A stretch of DNA of 34,434 nucleotides, taken from positions 1 through 34,434 of IMG/VR virus record IMGVR_UViG_3300023197_000025; one strand, written 5' to 3'. This DNA is from a virus (Duplodnaviria > Caudoviricetes). Below the pieces are notes generated by a model. That model saw only the letters and a list, made by a program, of their open reading frames with translations. It did no database searches and had not been told where the DNA came from. The position numbers and the translations under genes were made by a program. Positions 284 to 33,687 of the stretch are shown here, in pieces (the stretch's first letter is position 1; every line of letters begins with the position of its first letter).

Positions 284-868
284 CATCTTTTCCGCCCGCT
301 CCGCCTCCTCATCGAGGCCTCGCTCGCGGAGGTCTTCGATGTAGTCTTCAACACTTTGGTCGTCAAGACTCCCGACTGACGCGCCGAGCGATTGCTCGCG
401 GCGACGCTTCGTGGAAGGCATCGCGGTCTGGTCGCCTTCCTCCACGACTTCGGTGACGTTGCCGTTGTCGTCAACGTGGACGATGGCGAAGTCCTCCGGG
501 TCGTGGCGCTTGGTCGCGTCCTCCGGGTGGTCTTTGCGACCGGCGGTCTGACCGAGGTGAATCATCACACCGTGCTTGCCACGGAACGGACGCTCGCAAT
601 AGGGACACAACCGGGCGACCTGCTCGGACTCCCGCTCGTCGGGGTAGTCCATCTCGACCTCGCGGGTGCCAGCGGTCTTCGCGCTGTCGAGGTCGATTTC
701 CGGGGGAATCTCGCCCTGCTCGCCGTGGCCATCGTTCGAGGACTGCATGACGTGGAGATGCAGGGCGCGAGCCAACGGTTCTGCATCACACCCCTCAACG
801 GGGCACTCGACCGTTCGCTCCTCGTTCTTGTGGGTCGTTTTCTTCTGACCCCCATCTGATTTGAGCAT
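269..868 (-). CDS. Protein with two C2H2-type zinc fingers, putative DNA-binding regulator
   Basis: CPVEGC...HLHVMQSSNDGH and CPYC...HLGQTAGRKDH motifs; acidic composition. Confidence 0.8.
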   Translation of the reverse strand: MLKSDGGQKKTTHKNEERTVECPVEGCDAEPLARALHLHVMQSSNDGHGEQGEIPPEIDLDSAKTAGTREVEMDYPDERESEQVARLCPYCERPFRGKHGVMIHLGQTAGRKDHPEDATKRHDPEDFAIVHVDDNGNVTEVVEEGDQTAMPSTKRRREQSLGASVGSLDDQSVEDYIEDLRERGLDEEAERAEKMLLGK

Positions 869-967
869 CGTAGGCTTGCACCTGTTTCACATACAAAGAC
901 GGAAGCTTTACCCTTAAGTCTTGGTAATTACATCACACAAGCGGGACGCAAAGAATCGAAACGACAG

Positions 968-976
968 GCTTTTAGT
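968..976 (+). promoter_or_regulatory. Putative TATA box for the RNA cluster
   Basis: TTTTAG about 25 nt upstream of the structured element starting at 997. Confidence 0.4.
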
Positions 977-996
977 CTTGGCTCCCCTCTAATAGA

Positions 997-1057
997 GTGA
1001 AGGGAGTCGGTGAGAGCCGGTCCCTGATTCCGAGGTCGGAACCCTCGCGGGCTTCAC
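997..1057 (+). ncRNA. Putative structured small RNA (multi-way junction)
   Basis: Outer stem GTGAAG(997-1002)/CTTCAC(1052-1057) encloses a GAGA-tetraloop hairpin and a second hairpin. Confidence 0.4.
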
Positions 1058-1120
1058 CCACCCGATACGGTCCACACGCTCCTCGGGGCTTTTCTCCCCA
1101 GTTCGCACCTCTCCGTTCTC

Positions 1121-1134
1121 CCGAACCCTTTAAC
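1121..1134 (+). promoter_or_regulatory. BRE/TATA promoter upstream of the tRNA cluster
   Basis: CCGAACCCTTTAAC matches haloarchaeal promoter consensus; it lies inside an 11-bp inverted repeat (1077-1087/1136-1146). Confidence 0.55.
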
Positions 1135-1272
1135 TCCCGAGGAGCGGTACGTGGGCTTGAGGGTGAACCTGCTCGGTTCCCCTCGGAAGGTTGTGTCCCG
1201 CCGCGATTCGTTCCGGTTGGGATTCGAGGCGACTGGTCATCGCCTCACTTCTTGCACCTGTGCTACTGCCGT

Positions 1273-1346
1273 GCCGTCGTAACTCAGTTTGGCAGAGTGC
1301 CTGCTTCGTCCGTAGGAAGACGCTGGTTCGAGTCCAGCCGACGGCT
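1273..1346 (+). tRNA. tRNA-Thr(CGT) with atypical C37-C38
   Basis: Full cloverleaf: acceptor GCCGTCG/CGACGGC, D stem ACTC/GAGT, anticodon stem CCTGC/GTAGG, loop TT-CGT-CC, T arm GCTGG-TTCGAGT-CCAGC, discriminator U. Confidence 0.88.
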
Positions 1347-1347
1347 T

Positions 1348-1427
1348 GAGCCGGGCGAGCCGGTCCCGGTGTGGAGGCCGCGTGACCTTGCCCGTAACGG
1401 GCGAGGGCGCGGCAATCCATCCGGCTC
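1348..1427 (+). ncRNA. Long stem-loop RNA element between the two tRNA-like genes
   Basis: GAGCCGG/CCGGCTC closing stem, with inner stems TGGA/TCCA, GCCGCGT/GCGCGGC and CCTTGCCCG-TAA-CGGGCGAGG. Confidence 0.5.
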
Positions 1428-1445
1428 TATCTTTGCCCTCTGCTC

Positions 1446-1583
1446 GGTCGTGTGGCCCAGTGGTTAGGGCGCTCCCATCAGTCCCGTGTTGAACGGTAGC
1501 CCAAAGCCTGACGGCAGAACGGTTCCGTGTGCCACGGCGGCGCAAAACGGGAGCAGTCGCGGGTTCAAATCCCGCCGCGACTG
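1446..1583 (+). tRNA. tRNA-scaffold RNA with a 72-nt segment in place of the anticodon loop (identity undetermined)
   Basis: Acceptor GGTCGTG/CGCGACT, D arm GCCC-AGTGGTTA-GGGC, anticodon stem CTCCC(1472-1476)/GGGAG(1549-1553), T arm GCGGG-TTCAAAT-CCCGC. Confidence 0.75.
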
Positions 1584-1587
1584 TGCC

Positions 1588-1622
1588 GATGGCCCTGCTG
1601 GCGTTGCGGGCCGTCTCCTTTC
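1588..1622 (+). terminator. Hairpin plus pyrimidine tract ending the RNA cluster
   Basis: GATGGCCC.../...GGGCCGTC stem followed by TCCTTT. Confidence 0.4.
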
Positions 1623-1654
1623 GCTAGGACGCCAAAGACTCGAAGCACGTACCC

Positions 1655-2347
1655 ATGACTCTTGCCATCGCCAACATCGTCAGTCGCATCGTCACGCTCC
1701 TGATTCCCGGTCGCTCGGCTTCCCCGAGCGGTGCCAACGCCGTCCGCACGGCCCACAGCGAACTCGAAGACCTCGCCGAGAAGGAGTTCGAGGCCGTGCT
1801 GGAGGAGCCGGACATAGTGGAGGACGCTGAGGCCGAGTTCTTCGGCGACCCCAAGGTGGAAGTCCGACTCCGCGAGACGCCGTTCGATGCGCCTCAGCGG
1901 CTCGTCTTCGACCTCGATGACCCGCAGTTCGAGGCCCTGCTCGAAGCCTTCGACCTCGACATGGACTCGATGGAGGAACTGGCTGGTGAGGCCGTTCCGG
2001 TCCAGTTCGTTCGCGGCAATCCCGTCGTGGACTGGCCGTCCATCCTCGCCGAGAAGCGCGCCGAGGAACGGCGACAGGCCCGCGAGGAGATGGCCGAGGA
2101 AGCACCCGAGGAAGTCGTGACGGAAGACGACGCCCCGGACGAGCAGGAGGCCGATGAGGTCGCCGTCGAGGACGCCGAGCACCAGCCGTCCGATGGCCTC
2201 GACGTGGGCGCAGAGGCCGACGAGAGCGACGACGGCGACGAAGACGAGTCCTCGGCGGTCAACGTCGAGGAGACAACCGTCTCCGCCTCATCGGACGAGT
2301 CCTCGAACGAGGTGGCAACTGACGGGGGTGAGACGACCGATGGCTAA
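1655..2347 (+). CDS. Hypothetical acidic protein
   Basis: 230-aa ORF, haloarchaeal codon usage, D/E-rich tail. Confidence 0.85.
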   Translation: MTLAIANIVSRIVTLLIPGRSASPSGANAVRTAHSELEDLAEKEFEAVLEEPDIVEDAEAEFFGDPKVEVRLRETPFDAPQRLVFDLDDPQFEALLEAFDLDMDSMEELAGEAVPVQFVRGNPVVDWPSILAEKRAEERRQAREEMAEEAPEEVVTEDDAPDEQEADEVAVEDAEHQPSDGLDVGAEADESDDGDEDESSAVNVEETTVSASSDESSNEVATDGGETTDG

Positions 2348-2492
2348 CCACTGTGCCTGTCGGCCCTGTGGCCCGCACTGCTCGTGCAACTGCCACGAGC
2401 ATGACCCGAGCCACAACCGACGAGGCCGACGTGCTGACGAGTCTCTGGTAGCCAACGACCCGGACGTACCTACACGGGGGTATCCGCCGTGA
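2340..2492 (+). CDS. Cys/His-rich microprotein (metallothionein-like N-terminus)
   Basis: ATG overlaps the upstream gene end; MANHCACRPCGPHCSCNCHEH...; 50 aa. Confidence 0.6.
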   Translation: MANHCACRPCGPHCSCNCHEHDPSHNRRGRRADESLVANDPDVPTRGYPP

Positions 2493-2552
2493 GAAAGCGA
2501 CTGCCTCCGAAGCACAAACTCCCACTCCCGGCGAAGTTCCCCTCGCCGCTCC

Positions 2553-2603
2553 CACCGGGCGGGTAAGCAGGCCCGACACACGGTTCGACTCCGTGTCCCG
2601 GCG
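2553..2603 (+). ncRNA. Miniature tRNA-like structure (acceptor-like stem, hairpin, T arm)
   Basis: CACCGGG/CCCGGCG stem, hairpin CGGGT-AAGCAG-GCCCG, T arm ACACGG-TTCGACT-CCGTGT. Confidence 0.5.
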
Positions 2604-2613
2604 TGAGGTCCTG

Positions 2614-2678
2614 TAAGTCTCGAAGTGGTGCGCTTCGAGTCTTTCGTAAGACTGGAAAAACTCGGACCTCAAGTCTTT
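2614..2678. promoter_or_regulatory. Tandem pair of bipartite palindromic operator/promoter motifs
   Basis: TAAGTC-TCGA-N11-TCGA-GTCTTT followed by TAAGAC-N20-GTCTTT. Confidence 0.65.
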
Positions 2679-2737
2679 GAGTGCAGGCCGTTGGTCGCTC
2701 AAAGACTGCGGTTCAACCGACGGCACCCGTTCCAACC

Positions 2738-3892
2738 ATGTCCCGATACAGCAACTCCGGCGGTAGCACAGGCTCGAACAGCGGCGACTACGACGACACG
2801 ACCCTCAAACTCCAGAAGTACGCGGCCATCAGCGTCACGGGCAACCGCGTGAACGCCTACAACTCGGAGTACGGCGACAAGTTCATCGTCGGCTTCGAGG
2901 ACGTGGACGTTCTCGACGGAGTGGTGTTCCAGCGCGAGGACAAGCCCGGTACGTGGAAGGTCTTCTCGGCGGGCAAGTGGTTCAACCTCAACCCCGACGA
3001 CGGACTCGTGTACGAGTCCTACGACCCCGAGGCCGACGAGTACGAGGGGCAGATGAGCGCACAGGACGTGCTCGACCACCCGCGCGTTCTCGGCTTCTCC
3101 GAGACGTTCGGTGGCGACGACTACTTCTACAAGCCCATCGGCGTCATCATCGAGGAGGGCGGCGACGTGGCCCTCAACGATGAGGTCGTCGGCACCGAGG
3201 ACGGCCTCTCGGAGGAGCAGGCCGAGCGTGCCCGCTCCGAGACGGTCATCCCGGTCGGCGAGGTGTCCATGCTCCTGTCGAACAAGGCGTGGACGCGGAC
3301 GCTCGCCAAGAAAATCACCCAGTCCGGCGAGGCGGCGGTCGCTGACGGCGACGACGCCTACGAGGACTTCGGCTGGCTCACCACGGACGAGCCGGAACTC
3401 CGGCCCGAACTCGACGGGCGGGAGATGGAACTGTGGCTCACCGAGGAGCCGATTCCGGGCGAGGACTCGGACGGCACCTACACCACGCCGAACCTCAAGG
3501 ACGTGAAGACTGACAACTTCATCACCATCGAGAACGGCATCCAGTCGGACGGTGACTCGGGGTCTTCGTCTTCGGACGGAGCCACGTCGGACGAGTCTAC
3601 CGGGAACTTCGGCAACTCCAGCGGCTCCGTGAGCAACAGCGACAGTTCTTCGGAGTCCGCGCAGGCCGCTACTGACGGTGGCCAGCCGGAGGACGATGCC
3701 GACGACGGTGACGACGGTGACGGTCTGCCCGGTGACGTGCCCGACGTGCTGGACGACCTTCTCGACTACTTCGCCCGGACGCAGGGCGAGGCCTCGGCGG
3801 AGGAACTACGCGAGTTCGCCGCCGACGAGGTGGACGACCCGGACGCCGTGGACTGGGAGGCCGCGGCGGACGAAGTGGCGTCTCGGGCGTAA
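2738..3892 (+). CDS. Large acidic protein heading the replication module (function unknown; SSB-like role possible)
   Basis: Start refined to the ATG at 2738 (MSRYSN); globular N-terminal part, S/D/G-rich linker, small C-terminal helical domain. Confidence 0.85.
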   Translation: MSRYSNSGGSTGSNSGDYDDTTLKLQKYAAISVTGNRVNAYNSEYGDKFIVGFEDVDVLDGVVFQREDKPGTWKVFSAGKWFNLNPDDGLVYESYDPEADEYEGQMSAQDVLDHPRVLGFSETFGGDDYFYKPIGVIIEEGGDVALNDEVVGTEDGLSEEQAERARSETVIPVGEVSMLLSNKAWTRTLAKKITQSGEAAVADGDDAYEDFGWLTTDEPELRPELDGREMELWLTEEPIPGEDSDGTYTTPNLKDVKTDNFITIENGIQSDGDSGSSSSDGATSDESTGNFGNSSGSVSNSDSSSESAQAATDGGQPEDDADDGDDGDGLPGDVPDVLDDLLDYFARTQGEASAEELREFAADEVDDPDAVDWEAAADEVASRA

Positions 3893-3920
3893 AGACTCGA
3901 CCCTTCCGCCTTCGACTCAT
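3891..3920. promoter_or_regulatory. Bipartite operator/promoter motif copy
   Basis: AAAGAC-TCGA-N11-TCGA-CTCAT, intergenic. Confidence 0.55.
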
Positions 3921-3983
3921 GGACAGCAACCTAAACCGCGACCAGCCGGGGTTCGACCTCGACTGGAACCCTGACGACAACAC

Positions 3984-4289
3984 ATGGACGCACCAGACTT
4001 CCCCGAGACAGTAGAGGTAGAACTCGATGACGGCTCGACCGTCACCGTGCGAGAGACGCAGGACGAAATCTCGGCCAGTGCGGGGCGCAAACTCCAACTG
4101 GACGAGTTCGAGCCTATCAACTCGCAGATGACGGTCACGGCGTCGAAGCCCGAGGCTGGCTTCGCGTCGAAGGACGACCACGACGAGTGGGTAGAGGCAC
4201 AGGCCCGCTACGCACGAGTCGCCGCCGAGCGCGACGTGATGCGGCGCTACGAGCAGTACGTCCGTGAAGAAGCGTTCGGCGACGACTGA
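3984..4289 (+). CDS. Hypothetical protein
   Basis: 101-aa acidic ORF with typical codon usage. Confidence 0.85.
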   Translation: MDAPDFPETVEVELDDGSTVTVRETQDEISASAGRKLQLDEFEPINSQMTVTASKPEAGFASKDDHDEWVEAQARYARVAAERDVMRRYEQYVREEAFGDD

Positions 4290-4414
4290 CGTAGCGCATC
4301 GACCGTTCCTGACCGGAACGAACTGACCTGACCATCGACCCCGCGGGCCGGTAGGGGCAGGGGGCTGACCCCTCCCCGCCGACAGCCCGTGGGGTCGGAC
4401 ACAACCTTCAGACC

Positions 4415-5875
4415 ATGAACGTAGAAAACATCGAGAATCCGACGTTGTATGAGGTAAAACAGTTGACCCGTGACTACGGTCTGGTGGGGGAGGAGGACAC
4501 CGTACTGGTCGTCTTCCTCTCCTTCCTCGGTGGTGGCTTCGTGTTGATGACCGGCCTCTCATCGGGCGGCAAGGACGAAGTGGTGAACGCCGCCGAGTAC
4601 GCGGTCCCCGACGACTGGGTGTTCAAGGTGCCCACGTCGATGAGCAAGACCGTGCTGTACCAACAGCACGTAGACATTAACTCCTCGCCGGTCCACCGCC
4701 ACAAGGACATTTCCAACATCGCGGGCAAGGACTGGCTGGAGGACATTTGGAAGGCTCACGGCGACGGACGCTCCATCACCCACTCGTGGACCGAGGTCAT
4801 GGGGCAGGACCGCGAGGAACGGAGTCAGACGCTTCAGCCGCCGAACTGCATGATTCTGTTCCTCGCGGAGGACAACCAGCAGGTCGATATGAACGACTAC
4901 CCCGAGGTTCGGAACCGGGCGCTGGTCGTGACCATCGACGATTCGCAGTCGCTCACCGAGAAGGTCAACGAGCGGCAGGCTCGCCAGCAGGCGGGCATCA
5001 TCGAATACAACCACAGCGAACAGCGCACCAAGGAGATTCGGGAGTACGTCAGCAGTATCCCGATGCATATGTACGGGGACGAGGGCAACGGCGGCTTCCT
5101 CAACCCCGTCGCTCCGGCGCTGGACAACCAGAACCCGCTCCCACAGCACTTCACCGAGGCTCGCCGTGACTTCCCGCGGCTGAACGACTTCATGCAGAGC
5201 GTCACGCTGTTCCACTACGACGACCGCATGGAGGTTCCGAAGAAGCGGTGGTCGGACGAGATGCGGGTGGACAACATGGTGACGCTTCTCGTGACGCCCG
5301 CCGATGCGTGGCTCGGGATGCGCGTCTTCGGCGAGAAGATGGTCCTGAGCGCGCTGAACCTGCGCGACAAGGACTTCGCCCTGCTGGATATTCTCCGGTC
5401 GAACTACGGCAACCAGTTCGACGTGGGGACGCTCCAGATGAAGATGCGCGACCGGGGCTGGAACATCACGGACAGCGACGTTCGGTCGTCGCTGAAGAAC
5501 ATGAAGGTCAAGGGCTACGTGCGGGTGGACAAGACGGCGACACCCCACCAGTGGTCCGCCTCGGAGTTCGCATCGCAGGTCAGCCGCGGCGTGAACCTCG
5601 ACTGGCCGACGGTTGTCGAGGACACGAAGGACCTCGTTCGGGACCACTATCCCGATGAGGTCGCCGGGGACTACATCTCGCGGTTCTGCGAGGGCGATGG
5701 TCTGCTGGTCACGCACCCGTTCGACGGTCACACGGTGAACCTCAAAGAGCAGACCGCGAACGAACTGGAGGAGAAGGTCGAAGACCAGCAGGTGAAGGAA
5801 GCGACCGAGGCGTTCGGTGGTGGCCTCGGTGGCGACGACGATGACGACGACCCGTCGCAAGGTACACTCACATGA
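4415..5875 (+). CDS. P-loop (AAA+-like) ATPase with C-terminal winged helix; putative replicative helicase
   Basis: Walker A-like GLSSGGKD, ARRDFPRL sensor-like helix, wHTH-like DSDVRSSLKNMKVKGYV; adjacent to primase. Confidence 0.65.
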   Translation: MNVENIENPTLYEVKQLTRDYGLVGEEDTVLVVFLSFLGGGFVLMTGLSSGGKDEVVNAAEYAVPDDWVFKVPTSMSKTVLYQQHVDINSSPVHRHKDISNIAGKDWLEDIWKAHGDGRSITHSWTEVMGQDREERSQTLQPPNCMILFLAEDNQQVDMNDYPEVRNRALVVTIDDSQSLTEKVNERQARQQAGIIEYNHSEQRTKEIREYVSSIPMHMYGDEGNGGFLNPVAPALDNQNPLPQHFTEARRDFPRLNDFMQSVTLFHYDDRMEVPKKRWSDEMRVDNMVTLLVTPADAWLGMRVFGEKMVLSALNLRDKDFALLDILRSNYGNQFDVGTLQMKMRDRGWNITDSDVRSSLKNMKVKGYVRVDKTATPHQWSASEFASQVSRGVNLDWPTVVEDTKDLVRDHYPDEVAGDYISRFCEGDGLLVTHPFDGHTVNLKEQTANELEEKVEDQQVKEATEAFGGGLGGDDDDDDPSQGTLT

Positions 5876-6003
5876 GGCCCACAAAGCGAGATGCGGGGTT
5901 TTGTCCGTTCTGTGGGTCTGGTGAAATCGAACAGCATGGTTCAGGCTACCGCTGTACGAGTGAATCCTGCGAGGTGTCTTACACCTTCTGGATAGAAGCC
6001 TAA
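5872..6003 (+). CDS. CPxCG zinc-ribbon microprotein (43 aa, below ORF-track cutoff)
   Basis: ATGA overlap with the helicase stop; MRPTKRDAGFCPFCGSGEIEQHGSGYRCTSESCEVSYTFWIEA; ends 1 nt before the primase ATG. Confidence 0.7.
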   Translation: MRPTKRDAGFCPFCGSGEIEQHGSGYRCTSESCEVSYTFWIEA

Positions 6004-6004
6004 C

Positions 6005-7228
6005 ATGGACGCGGAACGAGCACTCTGGAAAGCCAGCACAGTCTTCGCACCGGACTTCCCACGCCGCTGTTCCGATGACGGCACGATACAGACCCCGAGG
6101 AACAACCGCGCCGAGTTCGTGGACGCACTGAAACGGGCCAGCGAGACGGATATGCCGGGCTACTACTCGGTGTATTCGTTCCCTCGGGGCGAGCCGAAGG
6201 ACGGCAACATCCCACACGTCGATTGCATCTTCATCGACCTCGACGTGGAGGGCGACGCCTACGACCCCAACGGGGGTAACACAGACTTCGGGGCGTGGCG
6301 TCGTGACATGAGCGCCCTGCTCGCTCGCGCTCGGATGATTGCCGACGCCATCATCGAGGCGGAGCAGGAGGACCACTTCCGTGTGACCCTTTCGGGCCAC
6401 AAGGGCCTCCACCTCTACCTCGACTTCCCGATGGTCAGCCCGGAGAACGGCGAGTTCGGGCAGTTCAAGAACGGTCTTGCCGAGTACGGCGAGACGGTGA
6501 TGGACTGGCTGGACAGCATCGCCGGGGGCGTCAACATCGACCCGTGGGTTGACGTGGACGCTTCGGACCTCGCCCGGCTCGCTCGGCACCCGAACACCCG
6601 CCACCACGGGGCGGCCTACGACGACGAGGAACGCTGGTGTGTTCCCATCACGGTCGAAGAACTTGCCGACCTCCACTGGGAGGACTACCTCGACTACACC
6701 AGCGCGCCGCGGTGGCCTGACGGCTACGAACGGAACCCCTCGGAGTCGGCGGGGCAGAAGGTCGTCCAGCACATCCGCAACGCGGCGACCTCATCGCGTC
6801 GAAGCCGGGGTAGCCGCTCGTCCTACGACCCCGGCGCGGTCAAGGCCTACAAGGAGGAATCCAACGATGACATAGAACTCGAAGACGTGCTGTTCCTCAC
6901 CTCGAACAAACCCTGCATCAAGGCGTTCCGTCAGCGTGACGACGCCTACAACTACGGTGAATCGTCCCGAGCGATGGAACTCAACATCATGGGGCGTTTC
7001 ATCGAGATGGACGTTCCCATCGAGGTGATGCACGAGTTCTTCGAGCCGATTCCCGGCTACGACGAGGACTTCACACAGCACCTCATCGAGGACCTAATCG
7101 GTCGCGGCTACAAGGAGTTCAACTGCGAAAACATCGTCGGCACGGAAGAAACGCCGGGTAGAGCGCCACAGTTCTGTCTCAAGGAAAACTGTGGTGTCTA
7201 CCAGCGGGCCGACGACCTCGAAGCATAG
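6005..7228 (+). CDS. Archaeo-eukaryotic primase, catalytic PriS domain fused to a PriL-like Fe-S domain
   Basis: AEP motifs FIDLD, SGHKGLHLY and D...RLARHPNT; C-terminal four Cys (KPC...FNC...FCLKENC). Confidence 0.85.
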   Translation: MDAERALWKASTVFAPDFPRRCSDDGTIQTPRNNRAEFVDALKRASETDMPGYYSVYSFPRGEPKDGNIPHVDCIFIDLDVEGDAYDPNGGNTDFGAWRRDMSALLARARMIADAIIEAEQEDHFRVTLSGHKGLHLYLDFPMVSPENGEFGQFKNGLAEYGETVMDWLDSIAGGVNIDPWVDVDASDLARLARHPNTRHHGAAYDDEERWCVPITVEELADLHWEDYLDYTSAPRWPDGYERNPSESAGQKVVQHIRNAATSSRRSRGSRSSYDPGAVKAYKEESNDDIELEDVLFLTSNKPCIKAFRQRDDAYNYGESSRAMELNIMGRFIEMDVPIEVMHEFFEPIPGYDEDFTQHLIEDLIGRGYKEFNCENIVGTEETPGRAPQFCLKENCGVYQRADDLEA

Positions 7229-7312
7229 CGCGCTAAAGACCCCTGTCCTTGCGGTTGCACCGTGTTCCCGAGCGTTTGGAGCACGGTGAGCCTTTCCCAC
7301 TCGAAGTTCACT

Positions 7313-8590
7313 ATGGACGAAACTCCTCACATCGACTCGCAGAAGCGCCAGCAAGTCTTCACCCCCATCCAGAACGGCGGTGCGACCTACGCCGAAATCG
7401 CCGACGCGGTTGGTTGTTCGCAATCGACCGCTCGGGACCACGTTTCGGCGCTCAAGCACGAAGATGGTGTTTCCATCGGCGAGCGCCGCATCGACGGCGC
7501 GAAGGAGTTCTACTGGCGAGCAGAAGCCGAGGAACACCCGACGAACGAAACTGCCGAGCGGTACACCAAGACGACCGAGAAGGCGGAGACAACCAAGACC
7601 CTCAACGAGAAGGCACAGGCGATGGAGCGTCGCCTCACTGCCCTGCTGGACGAGACACAGCCTGCCGTCGCCGACGGTGGCCTCGTTCAGGAGCCGAGCC
7701 ACGAAGACGTGGTGATTCACGCCACGGACGACCACGTTGGGGACGTGACCGAAGACGAGTTCGGAAACGTCACCTACGACCCGGAGACGTGGCGTGAGCG
7801 TCGGACGAAGACGTTCGATACGTGCTTCGACCTCGTGAGCCGCCAGCGGTCGGCGGGCTACACCTTCGACACCTTGCACCTCCTTCTCGGTGGTGACATG
7901 GTGACTGGTGAGGGCATCTACCCCGGTCAGGCGCACAACCTCGAAATGCCGCTCGATGAGCAGGTCGAGGCCTGTGCCAAGTTCTACATGACGCAGATTC
8001 GCCGGGCCGCTAACGAGTTCGAGAGCGTTCAGGTCGTGTGCCAGTCGGGCAACCACGGTGAACTCCGGTTCTCGTCCGCTTCGGGTGGGGCCAACGCCGA
8101 CCGGCTGATGTACCTGATGCTCGATGGTATGGTGCGGCAGTCCGAACTGGACAACGTGACGTTCGTTCGGAACAACAGCACGCACTTCACCAACTTCGAG
8201 ATGCGGACGCACCAAGGCCATCTGCGTCACGGGGACGACTCGCTGGAGCACATCGGCACCTCATCGGGCAAGCGCCGCTGGTTCAACTGGCGCGACAAGC
8301 ACCAGTTCGATGTGGCCTACCGTGGTCACTTCCACAAGTTCCAGTACGATACCCTCACGCGGACCTACGAGGAGTTCGTGCTCGATGAGGGGGGCCAGCC
8401 GGTGATGGAGGACGGCGAACCTGTGACCGAGACGGACACGCAGATGCTTCCCGTCATCATGTCAGGTTCGCCGAAGCCTCCCGAGGAGTTCGAGGAGTCC
8501 ATCGCGCGGTGGTCGCAACCCGCCGCAACCATCCACGGCGTTTCCGATTCCCGACCAGTTACGTGGTTCTTCCCGGTGGACTTCGAGTAG
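7313..8590 (+). CDS. HTH-fused calcineurin-like metallophosphoesterase
   Basis: N-terminal HTH (TYAEIADAVGCSQSTARDHV); DDH, GDMV, GNHG, HGD and GHFH motifs; start refined to the ATG at 7313. Confidence 0.85.
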   Translation: MDETPHIDSQKRQQVFTPIQNGGATYAEIADAVGCSQSTARDHVSALKHEDGVSIGERRIDGAKEFYWRAEAEEHPTNETAERYTKTTEKAETTKTLNEKAQAMERRLTALLDETQPAVADGGLVQEPSHEDVVIHATDDHVGDVTEDEFGNVTYDPETWRERRTKTFDTCFDLVSRQRSAGYTFDTLHLLLGGDMVTGEGIYPGQAHNLEMPLDEQVEACAKFYMTQIRRAANEFESVQVVCQSGNHGELRFSSASGGANADRLMYLMLDGMVRQSELDNVTFVRNNSTHFTNFEMRTHQGHLRHGDDSLEHIGTSSGKRRWFNWRDKHQFDVAYRGHFHKFQYDTLTRTYEEFVLDEGGQPVMEDGEPVTETDTQMLPVIMSGSPKPPEEFEESIARWSQPAATIHGVSDSRPVTWFFPVDFE

Positions 8591-8595
8591 GGGGT

Positions 8596-8626
8596 AAAGA
8601 CTCGAAGCGCGAAGCGTCAAGTCTTT
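8596..8626. promoter_or_regulatory. Bipartite operator/promoter motif copy
   Basis: AAAGAC-TCGA-N11-TCAA-GTCTTT, intergenic. Confidence 0.7.
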
Positions 8627-8673
8627 AGGACAGGACCCCGTTCGATAGAGTAAGTTCCCTCTCAAACGTCTCC

Positions 8674-8997
8674 ATGTCAGGAAACACAAGCAAGGTCGGC
8701 CAACGGGTTGACCAAATCGCGGTGGACGATGAACCTCACGAGAAATACTACGATAGTGGAGTTCCGATACTCCTAAATACCGCTGTGGGCCAAGTGGTAT
8801 CGAAGTCGGTCCACGCCTACACGGTCCACTGCTCGCAGTGCAACATCCCTGCGAGGTTCAACGAGAAGTCGGAGCCAGTCTGCCCCGAGTGCGGCCTCAT
8901 CTGTGCCGGTGAAGGTGCCACTTCGCAAGAGCGGGTAGTCTGCGACCCGAAAGCGGCGGGCCGTGTTGATACCGACGGAGCAGAGGCCCAAGCATGA
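8674..8997 (+). CDS. Zinc-ribbon protein
   Basis: CSQC...CPECG; the true start may be internal. Confidence 0.7.
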   Translation: MSGNTSKVGQRVDQIAVDDEPHEKYYDSGVPILLNTAVGQVVSKSVHAYTVHCSQCNIPARFNEKSEPVCPECGLICAGEGATSQERVVCDPKAAGRVDTDGAEAQA

Positions 8998-9708: not shown

Positions 9709-9724
9709 CTGCGGCAGTTCAACT

Positions 9725-25136: not shown

Positions 25137-25167
25137 AGTATCGAAGTTGTAGTGTTGTAGTTGTCTA

Positions 25168-25905: not shown

Positions 25906-25911
25906 GTGTAG

Positions 25912-26565: not shown

Positions 26566-26567
26566 AG

Positions 26568-27797
26568 TTACTTGCTGGAGACGTTGAAGGAGAGCGAGGA
26601 GTCCGTGCCATCGGCGATGGCGACCTCACTATCCGCGATACTGATGTTCGACTGGTTCGTGCCACTGGAACTCGTGTCCACGACGAGATTCTGAACGTCG
26701 TACACACCATCCACGTCACGGATGGCGTATTCGACCTCGCCGTACAGCACGTCTTCGCCAGTACCGAGGCCCGCAGTTTCGTTGCCCGACGTGCGGATGC
26801 CGCCGATGTAGTCCACGATGCTGTCGCGGAGGGCGTCCTTGCCGGGGAAGTCATCGGCCTTCGTCACGTCAGCGGAGACGTAAATCTGCGTCTCGGTCGG
26901 ACGTGAGAAGTCGATGTTCATGGTGTCCCCGTTTGGGAGGTCAGCCGTCGCCGAGACAGCGTTCCCGTGGACACCCGAGTACGACGTGTCACCCGCGGCC
27001 TTCGTGTCGAGGATGGCCTGTGCGAGTTCTTGTTTGTCTCCACCGGAGATGACCAACTCGAACGAGTGGTCGGGGAGGCCACCCGAGCCGGTGTTGTCCG
27101 TCGAGGAGTCGTTCACGAAGATGGTCGCCGACCGAACGCCGTCAACCAGTTTCACCTGATTGAGGAGCGCCGGGGCAGAGGCTCGGGACCCTTGTGCGAG
27201 TTCGTTCTTCGCTCGCTTGCGAAGTTCCTCGTCGTTCTCCCGAGCCGCACCACCGTTCGTCTCGTTCGGGTTCGTCGCATCCTCGACGCCAACCGGCGGG
27301 TCCGGCATGACCGTCAAGGTGTTCGCCCCGAGGTTCGCCTCCGGGCCACCTTCCACGGCCTCTACGGGTAGGGTAACACTTCGCCCACCCTCGGGGATGG
27401 TCCCCGAATCCGTTGTCTCGAACTTGATGGGGTCGATGGAGTCCGTCTGGACTATCGTCCCTTCGGGAACCACGTAATCGGTGGTCGCGTCCGACGACCG
27501 GCTAAACTTCACCTTGCCGGTCGCGTACTCGGGCGGCTCACGCCGAATCCCGATGAGGGCCGTCAGCAGGTCGAGTGCCTGACCTTCCGCGTAGTCGATT
27601 TGCGACGCATCGAGGACGAGGCCGATGCTCTCCTGCGTTTCGGCCAGCCGGGCCGCGATGGGCCGATAGAACGTGCGGACGATGGAGAGGTCGTTGTCGT
27701 TGAGGTCGTCGCCCCAGTGCTCTTTCGCGTCCGCGATGAGAGCATCGAGGATTTCCTCCTCGGTGTCCAACTGGGGTCTACCGTTGACAATCTCCAT
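26568..27797 (-). CDS. Baseplate J/gp47 family protein
   Basis: AEGQALD..GIRR, ATGKVKF, VPEGT, V.VEAVEGG..AN and GGAARENDEELRKR motifs. Confidence 0.92.
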   Translation of the reverse strand: MEIVNGRPQLDTEEEILDALIADAKEHWGDDLNDNDLSIVRTFYRPIAARLAETQESIGLVLDASQIDYAEGQALDLLTALIGIRREPPEYATGKVKFSRSSDATTDYVVPEGTIVQTDSIDPIKFETTDSGTIPEGGRSVTLPVEAVEGGPEANLGANTLTVMPDPPVGVEDATNPNETNGGAARENDEELRKRAKNELAQGSRASAPALLNQVKLVDGVRSATIFVNDSSTDNTGSGGLPDHSFELVISGGDKQELAQAILDTKAAGDTSYSGVHGNAVSATADLPNGDTMNIDFSRPTETQIYVSADVTKADDFPGKDALRDSIVDYIGGIRTSGNETAGLGTGEDVLYGEVEYAIRDVDGVYDVQNLVVDTSSSGTNQSNISIADSEVAIADGTDSSLSFNVSSK

Positions 27798-27800
27798 GAG

Positions 27801-28130
27801 TCAGTTCTCCGTGAACTCCCGCGAGAAGACCTCATCGGTCACGTACACGACCTCGACTCGATACGTGTCCGGGTTCTCGTCGGGTTCCTTGATGCGGATA
27901 CTTTCGATGCTGTCCAACTGGTCGTGACTCCGGGCGACGCGGGAAATTTCGAGGCGAATCTTCTGCTTCGCCGACTCGCGCTTGGTGAGGCCCGGAAGCG
28001 TCTCCTGCATGAACTCGGTGAGTCTGACCATCACCGACTGCTCGAAGGCTTCCCGGCCTGTCACCTCGCCGAGGTCGTTCCGCTCGTCCAGAGTGACAGA
28101 GAAGTTACTATTGAGTGCGAGGTCTTTCAT
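27801..28130 (-). CDS. Baseplate protein, gpW/gp25-like
   Basis: 109 aa between spike and J; DLGEVTGREAFEQSV. Confidence 0.7.
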   Translation of the reverse strand: MKDLALNSNFSVTLDERNDLGEVTGREAFEQSVMVRLTEFMQETLPGLTKRESAKQKIRLEISRVARSHDQLDSIESIRIKEPDENPDTYRVEVVYVTDEVFSREFTEN

Positions 28131-28160
28131 GGGTAGAAACTCGATGAGGCGGCGAGCAGG

Positions 28161-28763
28161 CTACTGCGGCGGGTCGGTGGTCTTCGTGGTCGTAGACTTC
28201 GACCCTCCACCGCTGTCCGTGTCCTCGATAGTGCTGTCGCCGTAGTTGTGCGTATGTTGGTCGAAGTCGATGCCGTCTATCTTCACGTCAGAAGCACCGT
28301 CGATGGTCACGGTATCACCATCCACGTCTACCGCCCCGGATGGGGCTTTGATGGTCACGTCAGCGTCCGACGTAACCTTTGCTTCCTGCTTGGCGTCCAC
28401 CGTGACGTTCTTCTCCGCCGTGACGGAGACGTTGCCCGACGCTGAGAGGTTCAGGTCGTAGTTCCCGTTCGAGTTCTCGGACAGCGCGACCTTCGTCTTG
28501 TCGTCCACCTGAATCGTCATCTCGCCCGGCTTCATGTTGTCCGGGTGGGACTTTTCGCGGGCGAGATAGCCGATGATGAAGCGCGTGTCGTCATCGAGCA
28601 CTTCCATGATGGCTTTCTCCCCCGGCTTCGGCATCCGAATCGTACCGGAGTAGGGCTTCATCACCGGAACCTTCCCAATGACGCTGCCGACCCGAAGGGC
28701 CTGCACGTTACAAAGCACGACGCCCTTCTTGTACGTAACCGAGGTAATGAGTCCGTGTTCCAT
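28161..28763 (-). CDS. Baseplate spike (gpV/gp45-like)
   Basis: N-terminal OB-like region (P.PGE..I), beta-helix repeats, C-terminal HTH iron-binding motif (DQHTHN). Confidence 0.8.
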   Translation of the reverse strand: MEHGLITSVTYKKGVVLCNVQALRVGSVIGKVPVMKPYSGTIRMPKPGEKAIMEVLDDDTRFIIGYLAREKSHPDNMKPGEMTIQVDDKTKVALSENSNGNYDLNLSASGNVSVTAEKNVTVDAKQEAKVTSDADVTIKAPSGAVDVDGDTVTIDGASDVKIDGIDFDQHTHNYGDSTIEDTDSGGGSKSTTTKTTDPPQ

Positions 28764-28765
28764 CG

Positions 28766-30187
28766 TTAGAACTTGCTGTCGTCTTCAATCCAGTTGCCGT
28801 CGTAGACCTGTTCCTCGTTCATGTATTCGCCCGACTGCGGGTCGAAGTACCGGACGAACGCCTCGATGGGAACGTCCGGGTACATCCCTACGTCAAGGGA
28901 AACTGACCACGAGCCACGCGAATCGAGGTTGTGCTCGATGCCGGTGATGACGTAGATTTCGTTGTGCGTGAAACCGCCACAGGCCTCTGACTTGATTTCC
29001 TGTGGTGTATGGCCAACACGGCCACTTTCCAGCGTCGGGTTCTCGAAGTGTTCGTCCCGAGGAACGATGTGGAGGAAGTCCCCAAGGGAAACACCCTTGA
29101 CGGCGGTGAAGTCGCCCGAGGCATCGGGGTCGATTTCGACCGTCCCCGAGTTCTGCTTCTTCATCTCCTCGCGGAGAGCCAACCGGGCGACCGTGCCGAG
29201 CACGTCAGCCTTGGCTTTCGTGTTCTTGACCGTGAACGAGAGGCCGTAGTCTACGTCTGCCCGGCTCGCAACGCCGGTCGCGCGAAAGTCACCGAATCCG
29301 TCTTCGTCGGCGGGGTTAATCCACGACACTACGTCGTCCAGTGTGCCAATACCGGGTTCGTCAACCCACCGACCTTCGACAACGACGTTCTGGACCGGAG
29401 CGCGTGGGTGGCTGATGGACACGTCCTTCCATTTCCACACGCGCTCGTCATCGAACGCGGCGACGTGAAGGGAAGAAGTCGTCTCCGGTGTTCCAACCCA
29501 CAGGCGACCCTGTGAGTCAGCCCACGAAGTCAGTCGGTACTTCTTGTTCAACTTCCAGATGGCCTTCGCCGGGGATACCTTGTTGAAGTCCACGGCGTAG
29601 TGCCCATCGACCATCTGGTAGGTGTCCGACTGTTCGATGTGGGCGATTTGGTTGCGTCGTTCCGATGAGGCCGCCGCAGAGTGAGCGAAGTCGTCCGTCG
29701 AGTCCGTGTCATCGAAGGCGGCACTCCCGACCAACGTCGTCTCCATATCTTCGGGGATAGTGAACTTGATTTCCGTCAGCAGGTCCTTGTTCTGCCGTTG
29801 GTCGAACGCATAGCGGTATGCGTCCTGTAACTTCACTTGGTCCCACTGCTTGTCCACGACCCCGTTCTCCAGCGACCGCTGGAGGTCCTTGAGTTCGATG
29901 TGAACGTACTGGTCGCCGTAGTCTACGGCGTCCGGGTCCCACATCATCGTCTGGATGGAGTCCCCGTCGTGGGCCAGTACCGCAGGTTGACGCGGACGAA
30001 GCGCCCCACCCTCGTAGCGGGTATGAGGCTTCATCTCGTCGCCGACCTCCCACGGAAGTTTCACCCGCGCGAAGTCGTACTCCCGCCGCTTCTGCTTAAG
30101 AGTCATCTCGACGGGGCGAACCTCGAAGGGTTCACTTCCGTTGACCTGCGGGAACTTGAGTGTCCACTTGTGCGTTCCACAACTCAT
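28766..30187 (-). CDS. Baseplate hub protein (gpD/gp44-like)
   Basis: Position before the spike; C-terminal YVITGIEHNLD..WSVSLD. Confidence 0.7.
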   Translation of the reverse strand: MSCGTHKWTLKFPQVNGSEPFEVRPVEMTLKQKRREYDFARVKLPWEVGDEMKPHTRYEGGALRPRQPAVLAHDGDSIQTMMWDPDAVDYGDQYVHIELKDLQRSLENGVVDKQWDQVKLQDAYRYAFDQRQNKDLLTEIKFTIPEDMETTLVGSAAFDDTDSTDDFAHSAAASSERRNQIAHIEQSDTYQMVDGHYAVDFNKVSPAKAIWKLNKKYRLTSWADSQGRLWVGTPETTSSLHVAAFDDERVWKWKDVSISHPRAPVQNVVVEGRWVDEPGIGTLDDVVSWINPADEDGFGDFRATGVASRADVDYGLSFTVKNTKAKADVLGTVARLALREEMKKQNSGTVEIDPDASGDFTAVKGVSLGDFLHIVPRDEHFENPTLESGRVGHTPQEIKSEACGGFTHNEIYVITGIEHNLDSRGSWSVSLDVGMYPDVPIEAFVRYFDPQSGEYMNEEQVYDGNWIEDDSKF

Positions 30188-30189
30188 GG

Positions 30190-30732
30190 TCAGTTCGAGG
30201 GAGCGTCCTGCATGATGGCCGTCACGATGGCGTTGCGACCACGCTGGTACTCGTCACGGCCCGTGGACACGAGGTCGAGCGTCCACTTGAACATCCACTG
30301 ACGGGTGTGGGGGTCCCACCCCTTCTGCTCGCCGAGTTCACCGTCCTTGATGATGCACTCCATACCGCCGGAGGGCGTGAGGGGTGAGAGTATGTCCACC
30401 TTCCCGTCGAAGTCGAGGAGTTTCTGGTAGACCGGAATCTCTCCTTCGAGGAGGACCCCGGTCGCGTGGAACTCTCGGTTCTTGATGGCCTTAATGGACA
30501 CTTCCTCGCCAGCACAACCGTCGGCGTAGCGGTCGAGTTCCTTCGACTTCTTCTGGTTGAAGCGGTCGGGGTAGAACTCGGGTGCGAACGTCCACGGAAC
30601 CTCGTGAGGACTAACCTCGAAGCCCAGTTGCGTGTTCGGGTCATCGGGGAAGTCCCCATCTTTGTACGAGGCTCCACGGACGGACGAACCGCCACCGCCG
30701 CCGCTACTTGCTCTAAGTCGTGCGTTTACCAT
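30190..30732 (-). CDS. Tail/baseplate protein (tube initiator-like)
   Basis: Lies between tape measure and hub. Confidence 0.55.
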   Translation of the reverse strand: MVNARLRASSGGGGGSSVRGASYKDGDFPDDPNTQLGFEVSPHEVPWTFAPEFYPDRFNQKKSKELDRYADGCAGEEVSIKAIKNREFHATGVLLEGEIPVYQKLLDFDGKVDILSPLTPSGGMECIIKDGELGEQKGWDPHTRQWMFKWTLDLVSTGRDEYQRGRNAIVTAIMQDAPSN

Positions 30733-32786
30733 CAGGAACCACCTCCGTTGCCCCCCTCATCGGAGTTAGACTGCGACGAGCCGGTGCCCGGAGACGGCGG
30801 GTTCATCGAGGTCTTCGTGCCGTTCGTCTCCTTCACCACGTCGCGGATGCGCTGTTCGCTCGCGTTGTCCATCCCACCGTTGTTGTTGATTTCGTAGGTC
30901 CGCTGGTCGTTGTAGACGACCTCTTTGCCACCACCCATCCGGCTCGGGCCGGGGCCACCGTAGCCCCCACCGCCGGACGGACCTTTGGTGGCCATCGAAG
31001 ACATGACGCCGCCTGCGGCTACTCCTGCTCCAACGACGAGCGCACCAACGCCGGTCGCGGCAAGTGCCGTTGCCGCAATAGCGGCGGCGGTACTCATCTC
31101 GTAGAGGGCGATGATGGTCGCGGTGATGTACGACCAGAGCGTGCTGAAGAACGTCGTGATACCGGCGAGGATGGAACCTCCGCCGATGAAGGCCAACATC
31201 TGTGCGACGGCGGTGAGTGCAGAGTAGAGGCCCCAAATCACCATGATGGTCTTCCCGACCGAGTAGGCAATCATCGAGGAGACTGCGATGAAGGTCAGGA
31301 GGCCCATCACGAGGTCGTTTTGTAGAAGATTCGACAGCCCGGCAAGAGCCGCGAACAGAGGTCGAAGGGCGGCGATGATGCGCCCAATCGCCATCGAGAC
31401 GTTGTAGGCGATTTGGGCAAGTTGGATGAAGACCGCCCCGAGGTCCATCATCAGCGACCAGTTCTCGTAGGCGGTCTGGATGAGCCAGCGGAAGAACCGG
31501 ACGAGTCCTGACGCGATGAGGCCAGCCGCTTCCGTAGCCATCGCGCTGATGATTTCCTCGTTCTGGACGAGGACATTCACCAGTTCCTCCGCGGCACGGA
31601 CGCCGATGTTGAACAGGTCGTAGAAGGTGCCCTCGTAGGCGGTGAGGCCTTCCATCGCCTCGGCAACACCTTCCAGTTGCTCCGGTGCCCAGTCAAAGAA
31701 CTTCGACTGAATCGGAGCGAACTCCATCATCGTCGGCTGGAAGGTGTCAAAGAGTTCAGCCTTGAACTCTCGCACCTCCTGCTTGGCCTGTTGCATCGCC
31801 CCGCTCATCGACTGAGCGTGACCGAGCAGACCAAGGCCGAGGACACCTTTTTTAGTGATGCGGCGACCACCGAGAGCGGCGGCGACGCCTGCGGCCTGCA
31901 CCCCGAACGCGACCATCATCGGAAGAAGGGCCGCGAGGAGATTGAGGTACTGACTCATCGACGGCTTGAGCCGTCGGAGATTCTTGCGGAACCGGGCCAT
32001 TCCGTCGTTCAGGGACCCGAAGTCGAAGTTCCGCATCTTGTGCCCCAACCACTCCCTACCGTCGAGGTCGAGGTTCATCGCGGAGCCAATATCGACGCTA
32101 AGGAGTTCGTCGCGGAACTGGTCCTTGAAATCTACGTCAAGGTCGGGGTCGATGCGACCACCGCGGCCAAAGAGTTCGTCGTCGGAGATGGCCGCCGACC
32201 CGAGATTTTGCGTGCGGTAATCGTGGCCGCGAACGTCGTGGAGAACGTCCGCCATCGCTTCGTTGAGTTCCCCTTGGTCCATTCCTTCGACGGCGGCCTC
32301 GGAAATGGAACCACCTTCGAGGTCGAACGCATCCTCGATTTCGTTCGTAATTTGCGTGGAGTCGAACGAGTCGGGGAACTCGTCCTCGTCTATCATCTCC
32401 CGCACGCCGGAAAGTTCGACGGTGAAACCCTTCGAGGAGGTGCCGGTAGTGCTGTCGTCACCGCCGCCGTCGTCCGGTGGGTCGTTTTCTCCGCCGGGTC
32501 CTCCGCCCGTTGAGCCGTCGGGTTCATCGAAGCCGATTTCTACGTCGTCCCACTCTTGCGCTGCCTGCGAAAGTTCCGCGCCGAGGTTGTCAACCTTCGC
32601 CTCGATTTCATCGAGCGCATCAAGGAGTTCGTTCAGGTCTTCAGCAACCTCCCCGATGCTCCCGCCGAAGTCGATGCCGTCGAGGTCATCGAACTTCTGG
32701 TCGAGGTTTTCAAGAGCAAGGGATACGGCCCCGATTTCCCCGAGGGCGGAGGACGCATCAAGTTCAAGTTCGATTTCAACTGCCAT
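30732..32786 (-). CDS. Tail tape measure protein
   Basis: Follows the chaperones; amphipathic Ala/Gly-rich helices and several hydrophobic segments. Confidence 0.85.
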   Translation of the reverse strand: MAVEIELELDASSALGEIGAVSLALENLDQKFDDLDGIDFGGSIGEVAEDLNELLDALDEIEAKVDNLGAELSQAAQEWDDVEIGFDEPDGSTGGGPGGENDPPDDGGGDDSTTGTSSKGFTVELSGVREMIDEDEFPDSFDSTQITNEIEDAFDLEGGSISEAAVEGMDQGELNEAMADVLHDVRGHDYRTQNLGSAAISDDELFGRGGRIDPDLDVDFKDQFRDELLSVDIGSAMNLDLDGREWLGHKMRNFDFGSLNDGMARFRKNLRRLKPSMSQYLNLLAALLPMMVAFGVQAAGVAAALGGRRITKKGVLGLGLLGHAQSMSGAMQQAKQEVREFKAELFDTFQPTMMEFAPIQSKFFDWAPEQLEGVAEAMEGLTAYEGTFYDLFNIGVRAAEELVNVLVQNEEIISAMATEAAGLIASGLVRFFRWLIQTAYENWSLMMDLGAVFIQLAQIAYNVSMAIGRIIAALRPLFAALAGLSNLLQNDLVMGLLTFIAVSSMIAYSVGKTIMVIWGLYSALTAVAQMLAFIGGGSILAGITTFFSTLWSYITATIIALYEMSTAAAIAATALAATGVGALVVGAGVAAGGVMSSMATKGPSGGGGYGGPGPSRMGGGKEVVYNDQRTYEINNNGGMDNASEQRIRDVVKETNGTKTSMNPPSPGTGSSQSNSDEGGNGGGS

Positions 32787-32794
32787 GTGTCAGA

Positions 32795-33122
32795 TTAGTC
32801 CTCGTGAACCTCGTGGTCCGGGTTCAGTTCCTTGTTGATGTAGCGAACCGTTTCTTCCTGCCCGAGGTCGCCACCACCGCCGGGCGAGCCACCTCCAGCA
32901 CGGGCGTTTCGGGGACGTGAGGGGCCGCCCCCACCCTGCTGTGTCTGCTGGCGCATCTCCTCGCGTTTCTTTTCCCGTTCTTCGGCCTCCTTGGCCTCGG
33001 CGGCTTCGATGACCTGCCGTTGAAAGGGAGTTAGTTCGAGTTGGCTCTCGATGCCAACAATCGAGGAGTCGTACTTGTCCAGCAGGAGGGTGACGCTACT
33101 CGCCGCCCCCGTCTCGGCGAAA
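32795..33122 (-). CDS. Frameshift extension of the tail assembly chaperone (gpT-like part)
   Basis: Open +1 frame without a convincing start; coding-like from FAETGAASSV... onward; entered at TTT-CGC. Confidence 0.7.
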
Positions 33123-33614
33123 GGTTTCGGCCTTGTCGGCGTCCGAGGAGATTTCCAGAATCTCCTTGGCGATGACGAGGGTCTTCCCACCCTGAAGGCC
33201 GATGCCGTCTTCGCGGAGGTTGCCGTCCTCGTCCACGCCGAGGATTTCGCGCAGACCCTCCTCGGTTTCACCCTCGGCGATGCCCTGCGTGCTGTCGATG
33301 CCCATTACGGCCACGTCGGCCATGATGGACACGAACTCGTCATCGAACTGCGAGGGGTCGATGGTGTCCGTGTCCGGGTCGTGTCCGTCTTCCAGAGCCT
33401 CCTGTGCTTCCTCCGGGTCCATGTCGAGGCGGTCTTCGAGGAAGGCCGCCACCGGCAGGAACTCGGGGTCGGTGAGCGGGCGGAGGTACAGGGTGCCCTC
33501 CATCCCGTAGTAGGTGAAGTCGATGGTTTCGCGGTACTCTTTGCCCCGAATCGCCATCTCGCGGAGACGGCTGATGTTGGGGCTGTCGCTCTCGGAATTA
33601 GTGTCTTCGTTCAT
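33096..33614 (-). CDS. Tail assembly chaperone (gpG-like)
   Basis: Acidic 172-aa ORF between tube and tape measure, with a slippery site near its 3' end. Confidence 0.8.
   Translation of the reverse strand: MNEDTNSESDSPNISRLREMAIRGKEYRETIDFTYYGMEGTLYLRPLTDPEFLPVAAFLEDRLDMDPEEAQEALEDGHDPDTDTIDPSQFDDEFVSIMADVAVMGIDSTQGIAEGETEEGLREILGVDEDGNLREDGIGLQGGKTLVIAKEILEISSDADKAETFRRDGGGE
33117..33122 (-). promoter_or_regulatory. Putative +1 programmed frameshift site TTT-CGC
   Basis: In-frame ACC-TTT-CGC; a slip to TTC joins the downstream ORF. Confidence 0.7.
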
Positions 33615-33687
33615 GGGTATGCAGTCTGTCGGGAGAAAAACGCGAACGGGTCAGTTAGCGTGCTGTACGCCGATGAGGCGGGGCTGT

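Follow-up and report, generated by a model that had tools for sequence, protein, structure and literature searches.

A dispersed octamer in an HF1-like halovirus genome as a probable start site of the viral primase

We examined a short word, CGATGAGG on the + strand and CCTCATCG where a copy lies on the − strand, that is dispersed through the virus record IMGVR_UViG_3300023197_000025. This 34.4 kb stretch of DNA, called the window below, is a partial genome and represents about half of the genome of an HF1-like halovirus (Hafunaviridae). Our favoured reading, to which we give a probability of roughly 0.7, is that the word is a selected signal, evenly spaced on each strand, which serves as the recognition and start site of the viral PriS-PriL fusion primase. 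The word is likely to be a start site of this enzyme because letter 5 of the word changes together with one primase residue.

Copies of the word in the window

An earlier note on this DNA had listed 38 exact copies (20 of CGATGAGG and 18 of CCTCATCG), and every coordinate proved exact.

2152, 3178, 5653, 8383, 10084, 12556, 13885, 15136, 17776, 18583, 21178, 23357, 23634, 23891, 24702, 27551, 28142, 29663, 31514, 33671; + strand; dispersed copies of CGATGAGG, span 2152..33678
307, 2286, 6789, 7081, 8259, 10678, 11887, 11920, 13391, 15811, 16822, 19167, 19709, 22226, 23587, 26394, 27830, 30755; − strand; dispersed copies of CCTCATCG, span 307..30762
4557..4564; − strand; copy of the 7-mer core (CGATGAG+A), one of 24 further 7-mer copies

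The expectation of 1-2 copies given in that note stands as a figure for base composition and overstates the excess (1.96 copies under a Markov model of order 1, 8.4 under one of order 3). Composition and low-order Markov nulls were dropped as too lenient, and copies in coding frames were compared with shuffled genes. With a gene set made by hand, we observed 29 coding copies against 6.7 expected (maximum 14 in 1000 synonymous shuffles), or against 8.8-12.3 when GATC, AGCT and CTAG were banned. The window avoids 43 words of 4-6 bases, and word avoidance is a known trait of the Hafunaviridae (PMC7230728). In our strict null, proteins and codon usage were kept and all 43 words were banned, in three schemes of 300 shuffles each. 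With an automatic gene set, 31 copies were observed against 11.5, 12.8 and 14.9 expected; the maxima were 21, 21 and 24, and the observed count was reached in 0 of 300 shuffles in every scheme. A codon-preserving shuffle combined with palindrome avoidance, which had been set beforehand as the null that could refute selection, thus fails to reproduce the count.

Under the strict null, 16 coding copies read as Asp-Glu (3.2-4.8 expected) and five as Ser-Ser in the codons TCA TCG (0.2-0.3 expected), the latter being the five TCA copies described earlier. The Leu-Ile register is not enriched, because its 10 copies compare with 8.0-9.6 expected. About a third of the coding copies are accounted for by protein sequence and word avoidance. 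There are 76 coding positions that could host the word without a change of protein, and 31 are used. When 8-mers were ranked in a single run of the strict null with 12 samples, the word came third, after an overlapping word and GCTCGGGA. Both GCTCGGGA (11 against 2.6) and CCGGCTCG (20 against 6.5) also exceed the codon nulls in the coding part of the window; their spacing was not even where examined.

Six copies lie in spacers, where 0.16 are expected; the underlying list counts a seventh, at 19167, in the HNH frame. All six are in + orientation, as the note had remarked, and this holds for the window and not as a general trait, the spacers of the relative HSTV-2 having 7 + and 7 − copies. We also found the 15-mer common to the copies at 21178 and 23634, and the copies inside the intein (16822, 17776) and the HNH gene (19167), as described. 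In 33 of the 38 copies, the word is directly preceded on its 5′ side by C or T. In five haloarchaeal genomes, the density of the word is 0.075-0.16 per kb (from rounded sizes) against 1.10 here, which is 7-15 times fewer. The strict null and this low host density back the proposal of a selected, non-palindromic, virus-specific genome-wide word.

The idea that the word is a by-product of acidic proteins, codon choice and restriction-site avoidance is largely refuted, and we consider it extremely improbable. It would account for the approximately 10 Leu-Ile copies and for up to half of the coding count. However, the observed 31 copies were reached in 0 of 900 strict shuffles, and neither the excess in spacers nor the even spacing described below is explained. 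Furthermore, relatives that keep GATC (L024, L072, L078) have the word, which rules out GATC avoidance as its cause, and the CGATAAGG variants found in relatives require Lys or rare Leu codons. A hammerhead ribozyme core was rejected as another source of the word; the Rfam matches in the window are tRNAs only.

Spacing on each strand and variants in relatives

On the + strand, the largest gap between copies is 2849 (p 0.0001), and the Greenwood measure of evenness gives p 0.0005; evenness on the − strand gives p 0.03. Under a codon-constrained null, the values for evenness are p 0.002 and p 0.09, respectively. Among 25 single-strand 8-mers with a similar count, none is spaced more evenly than the word and its complement. 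The only 8-mer gap above 3 kb (2286-6789) is split by the 7-mer at 4557 into 2271 and 2232, and none of the 60 gaps between copies of the 7-mer CGATGAG exceeds 2925. Across 17 records, evenness reached p<0.05 in 12 of 34 strand tests and p<0.5 in 30 of 34 (Fisher 1e-12). Copy counts per strand (20/18, 27/20 and 30/22) show no strand bias. The positions of + and − copies were independent in 8 of 8 records, and a pairing of + with − copies, which we considered, was found in none of the eight. Overall, the word is non-palindromic and strand-specific, occurs on both strands and is spaced at the length of replication fragments, with five records and the 8-mer of the HF2 group as exceptions. The evenness per strand and the independence of the strands disfavour the suggestion in the earlier note of a self-tag for protection or packaging.

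To compare relatives, loci around 95 primase matches were gathered and 25 near-duplicates removed; one further locus, L214, came from a second IMG/VR scan. The word occurs 47 times in HSTV-2, 52 times in HRTV-7 and 50 times in HRTV-11; the counts in other family members are 6 in HF2, 8 in HRTV-5, 6 in HRTV-8, 8 in HJTV-2, 2 in HRTV-25 and 0 in HRTV-27. The variants are clade-wise and comprise CGATGAGG, CGATAAGG, CGAGAAGG, CATCGAGG, CATTGAGG and CGGGAAG, together with the 7-mer CATCGAG. There are 45 copies of CGATAAGG in G006 and 60 in G008, with 37 against 5.8 and 44 against 8.1 under the strict coding null. Similarly, CGAGAAGG has 60 copies in G010 (50 against 14.7 under the strict null), and CATCGAGG in HRTV-8 reaches 85 against 24.5. 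The whole records G017, G018 and HRTV-25 gave only weak words. As a word for HRTV-25, GGTTGGGT was ruled out, since its copies are clustered and 24 of 25 lie on one strand. Clustered one-strand repeats of GGTTGGGT or TGGGTCTG, distinct from the dispersed word, were also seen near the primase at L042, L103-L105, L044, L045 and L107.

The sites turn over. In the comparison with HSTV-2, where 6704 codons of the window are alignable, 5 of 20 alignable window sites are kept in place. Conversion in place was found at window sites 15136, 27551 and 31514, which are CGATAAGG in G006, with amino-acid changes involved. The first of these lies in the DNA polymerase gene.

15136..15143; + strand; copy in polB, whose aligned codons are CGATAAGG in G006, G007 and G008 and CGAGAAGG in G010 (Asp-Glu, Asp-Lys, Glu-Lys)

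The non-coding copies of ten records have in common a weak 5′ flank, G-N-G-T-T, approximately 7-11 bases upstream, and a lineage-specific base (A or C) at −3. Two genomes are mosaics: G009 (L134-L137) carries CGAGAAGG throughout and CGATAAGG confined to two blocks, and G007 (L126-L129) is without CGATAAGG from 18.6 to 49.5 kb. Such mosaic words could date recombined blocks. A crude scan for methyltransferases with the pattern [DNS]PP[YFW], which is blind to C5 enzymes, matched in 3 of 14 records (G011, HF2 and HJTV-2) and gave no match in HSTV-2, HRTV-7, G006, G008-G010 or HRTV-8.

The primase and letter 5 of the word

The proposed reader and its two residues of interest are encoded as follows; AEP denotes the archaeo-eukaryotic primase family and CTD a C-terminal domain.

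6005..7228; + strand; monomeric primase of 407 amino acids, with an AEP catalytic domain (~1-260) and a PriL-CTD-like four-cysteine helical domain (~273-402)
6968..6970; + strand; codon of Arg322, aligned with the invariant His of archaeal PriL and with human His303
7082..7084; + strand; codon of Leu360, inside the word copy 7081-7088, aligned with the invariant Gln of archaeal PriL and with human Asn348

The identity of this protein with annotated primases is 66-67% for Mincapvirus and 46-50% for Haloferacalesvirus. The AEP motifs D78, D80, H132/H136 and D188 are kept in 118-120 of 120 homologues, and the modelled AEP domain matches CAPP, LigD and RepB′ (Foldseek E 7e-5). Cysteines C304, C374, C391 and C396 are present in 119 of 120 homologues, and PF04104 matches in 8 of 57 members, once above the cut-off. 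Extra PF04104 matches were noticed in G062 and G040 within frames of 830-880 amino acids, which are probably mobile-element primase fusions. Alignment with 31 archaeal PriL domains (hhalign, 94%, 13% identity) pairs Arg322 with their invariant His and Leu360 with their invariant Gln, and a separate comparison gave the same placement for 322 and 360. The archaeal PriL profile in turn places these on human His303 and Asn348 (in the offset numbering of 4rr2). Within p58C, the human enzyme's His303 is stacked against the GTP that starts the primer, and Asn348 forms a bond with the template base, C or T (PMC5333051). Because positions 322 and 360 align with these two residues, the two primase columns that follow letter 5 best appear to be those that hold the first base pair.

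The model of the C-terminal domain matched the pRN1 helix bundle best (Z 7.8, root-mean-square deviation 3.3, 91 residues aligned). Other matches were PriX (Z 7.1), photolyase helical domains, yeast p58C (5.4) and, weakly, NrS-1 (4.7). Foldseek with this model gave nothing at E<=0.001, with PriX at E 1.3-2.2, and the ESM Atlas leads PF04104, PriCT_1 and PriX were all below 0.9.

Words of the form C-N-N-N-R-A-G were assigned by hand at 40 of 75 primase loci; 37 were used, and three of another register were omitted. All 18 loci with Arg322 have G at letter 5 (G-type), and all 19 loci with His322 have A (A-type), so that the rule holds at 37 of 37 assigned loci. Column 322 is the only perfect one among 2844 columns in ten proteins, PolB being partly covered. 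The next-best columns are Cas4 position 321 (0.82) and primase position 360 (0.70), the second best within the primase, where L/M goes with G and mostly Q/R with A. The 120 homologues listed also include the unusual 322-360 pairs His-Met, His-Glu, His-Val and Arg-Glu. In a test confined to non-coding copies, the letter-5 rule holds in 12 of 13 records with a score of at least 3, and the sole exception is a core of the promoter repeats known from HF2 (PMC8707807). The A-type primases are not monophyletic (approximately unbiased test with columns 322 and 360 removed, p 9e-9). The His/A group is nested beside the Arg/G group of the window in the trees of both primase domains, and therefore two independent switches are indicated.

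The candidate readers named in the earlier note thus fared differently: the primase is favoured by its perfect column, the C2H2 protein is not (best column 0.58), and the iron-sulfur (Fe-S) nuclease has a column that fits 29 of 30 loci. The latter two proteins lie as follows.

12293..13267; + strand; Cas4-like PD-(D/E)XK nuclease, a rival reader
269-868; C2H2 protein, a rival duplex-binding reader

Chi-type signals are read by related nucleases, and the word, dispersed, non-palindromic and present on both strands, might be a Chi-like or self signal for this Cas4/AddB-like Fe-S nuclease, at which degradation halts or recombination-dependent replication starts. Cas4 position 321 is Tyr at 15 of 15 G loci and Trp at 14 of 15 A loci, which speaks for the nuclease and against the primase as reader. 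However, L051 combines Cas4 Tyr and primase His with an A-type word, and the exchange of Tyr for Trp, next to the Fe-S cysteines, is conservative. This explanation, which we consider unlikely, also leaves open why the two best primase columns sit on the initiation site.

We find it less probable still that the word is a site for a duplex-DNA-binding protein, either the C2H2 protein or a transcription, packaging or genome-shielding factor. The weakly conserved 5′ flank of the spacer copies, about 12 bases long, would suit such a protein, and the genome half outside the window may encode further readers. A duplex binder would need neither evenness per strand nor independence of the strands, and the best C2H2 column is poor, as given above. 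Moreover, the repeats that form the described HF2 promoters differ from the word, which does not appear in the main text of the paper on them (PMC8707807).

A third alternative is a loading or restart site for the helicase or the whole primosome, with the primase residue changing for another reason. Strand-specific, evenly spaced sites would be required here as well, the footprint is longer than known AEP sites, and letters 2-4 have no matching primase column. On the other hand, the best helicase column scores 0.59, with 0 of 466 columns perfect, and no helicase column separates CGAT from CGAG. We rate this alternative slightly below the duplex binder. In a wider search for proteins that follow letters 2-4, disjoint columns were found that vary within groups, and none of these was in the primase or the helicase.

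Several observations weigh against the primase as reader. The two independent switches are too few for significance (sign test p 0.5), and the words were assigned by hand with the tree in view, several of the 37 being weak. No primase column follows letters 2-4. In the non-coding test, ten His records that score below 3 split 5 to 5, and the best words at the short His loci L084 and L089 are weak and of the G type. Genome G007 (locus L017) carries His322, but its copies genome-wide comprise 32 of the G type and 20 of the A type; it was scored as A in the 37-locus test, from 21 kb around the primase. Because no other assigned locus has Ala360, and both word forms of G007 have A at −3 within one common 5′ flank, this case suggests a relaxed primase or a genome in transition. 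As for the fold, the structural Z scores of the C-terminal domain are middling, and profiles of the whole primase or its C-terminal part found no primase among PDB sequences. Two successive alignments, at 13% identity, are needed to reach the human residues, and the position of the triphosphate-binding human Arg306 is an invariant Glu325 (120 of 120). Evenness of spacing falls short of significance in G007, G012, G014, G016 and HRTV-25, and also for the 8-mer of the HF2 group; the 7-mer CATCGAG of that group is even (5 of 6 strands p<0.05) but was tested only afterwards. Finally, HRTV-27 and G020 are without a clear word under the whole-record strict null.

Proposed priming mechanism, known systems and neighbouring features

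We infer that the primase would read the single-stranded template 5′-CCTC^ATCG-(R)-3′, in which the C opposite letter 5 would template the first nucleotide, and that the all-purine primer would begin pppG-A-G-G. In His-type viruses, the template would be 5′-CCTT^ATCG-3′ and the primer pppA-A-G-G. The bases ATCG and the weaker 3′ flank would be bound and left uncopied, as GTG is by the pRN1 primase. Arg322 and Leu360 would select GTP opposite C, and His322 and Gln360 would select ATP opposite T. At + strand copies, the − strand would be the template. Both strands would serve as lagging template, with selection against long unprimed stretches capping gaps near 3 kb per strand, and the regularity of the sites on both strands would limit the length of lagging-strand fragments to approximately 1-3 kb. 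We give slightly better than even odds to the broader proposal of a private, evolvable priming code, in which a word of 7-11 bases is kept every 1-3 kb per strand despite its amino-acid cost, and two residues switch the first base, after which the genome converts.

Sequence-specific AEPs are already known (GTG for pRN1, a triplet for NEQ395, 8 bases for NrS-1). ORF904 of the Sulfolobus plasmid pRN1 also fuses an AEP domain to a PriL-CTD-like domain, the best structural match of the viral one; this comparison leaves out the Fe-S cysteines and the helicase fusion. Its helix bundle domain reads GTG, uncopied, directly 3′ of the initiation site, and pyrimidines occupy the first template positions (PMC13469122). 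However, a 3-base site needs no genome-wide selection, whereas the halovirus word has 7-8 bases plus flank and recurs every ~1-3 kb per strand. The primase-polymerase of phage NrS-1 is an AEP with the 8-base template site TTTGGTTA (PMC8718748, PMC7102993), present in two genomic copies and proposed as origin (PMC7102993), with GTG also used; in contrast, the halovirus word has about 50 evenly spaced copies per genome and differs between lineages. Cellular PriS-PriL, as in human p58C, has the same four-cysteine PriL C-terminal domain, with His303 and Asn348 at the positions of viral residues 322 and 360, and NEQ395 of Nanoarchaeum is a one-chain PriS-PriL primase with a triplet preference (PMC10250227).

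Genome-wide sequence features are described for the same virus family in palindrome avoidance and in the HF2 class I/II repeats (PMC7230728, PMC8707807). The latter are AT-rich promoter repeats of 29-58 bp in spacers (PMC8707807), whereas 31 of the 38 word copies lie in called genes, in both orientations; nor is the dispersed word an absent word. As a separate observation, TAAAGACT occurs at window positions 3890, 8595, 8620, 23398 and 34252, in or at the edge of spacers (0.3 by chance), and resembles the alpha motif of the HF2 class I promoter repeats (PMC8707807).

Chi sites and DNA uptake sequences are likewise short words over-represented in coding frames and varying between lineages. Unlike these, the halovirus word is private to the virus and spaced per strand, and its link is to a primase residue, not to a nuclease or uptake receptor. 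We found no description of the word or of halovirus priming sites among the literature matches listed, in a search that ended short of supplements and the original HF1/HF2 genome papers, and no long site that is kept about 50 times per genome, turns over and changes with the initiation-site residues of its enzyme. The term "primase" is absent from the main text, supplements aside, of PMC7230728, PMC8707807 and PMC8651126, and the passages of PMC5862659 examined make no mention of haloviruses.

The window also encodes a Cas4-like nuclease, PolB with an intein, an integrase, baseplate J and myovirus tail genes. Its replication and myovirus tail genes are in common with classified members of the Hafunaviridae. 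Two replication genes are close to the present subject.

4415..5875; + strand; P-loop protein of 486 amino acids 5′ of the primase, with a GxxxxGKD motif
14972..18895; + strand; family B DNA polymerase with an intein, which would extend the primers

From its motif and position, and with no named family, the P-loop protein is likely to be a putative helicase partner of the primase. Several non-palindromic words are also absent or nearly absent from the window (GCAGC, GAAGAG, GAGACC, GAGCCC, GACATC, GCCAGA, CTACAG and AGTACA) and are candidate targets of host restriction or BREX systems. A 138-base Rfam tRNA match at 1446-1583 (+), missed by ARAGORN, adjoins tRNA-Thr at 1273-1346 and is likely an intron-containing tRNA. 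Two overlapping open reading frames, 33096-33614 and 32795-33100 (−), precede the tape measure gene; the pair found at this position in HRTV-25 and HRTV-27 carries the annotation of a frameshifted tail chaperone.

The proposal offers a reader for a hidden genome-wide word, together with a rule that pairs base with residue. This rule is testable with one small enzyme and short oligonucleotides carrying CCTCATCG or CCTTATCG, and HSTV-2, HRTV-7 and HF2 are in culture. If it is true, these viruses would offer a natural series of AEP primases whose specificity is long and can be switched, and the control of Okazaki spacing in archaeal viruses would be directly testable. Priming would then be confined to viral DNA, the length of Okazaki fragments would be set by sequence, and a priming signal would shape codon and amino-acid choice genome-wide.

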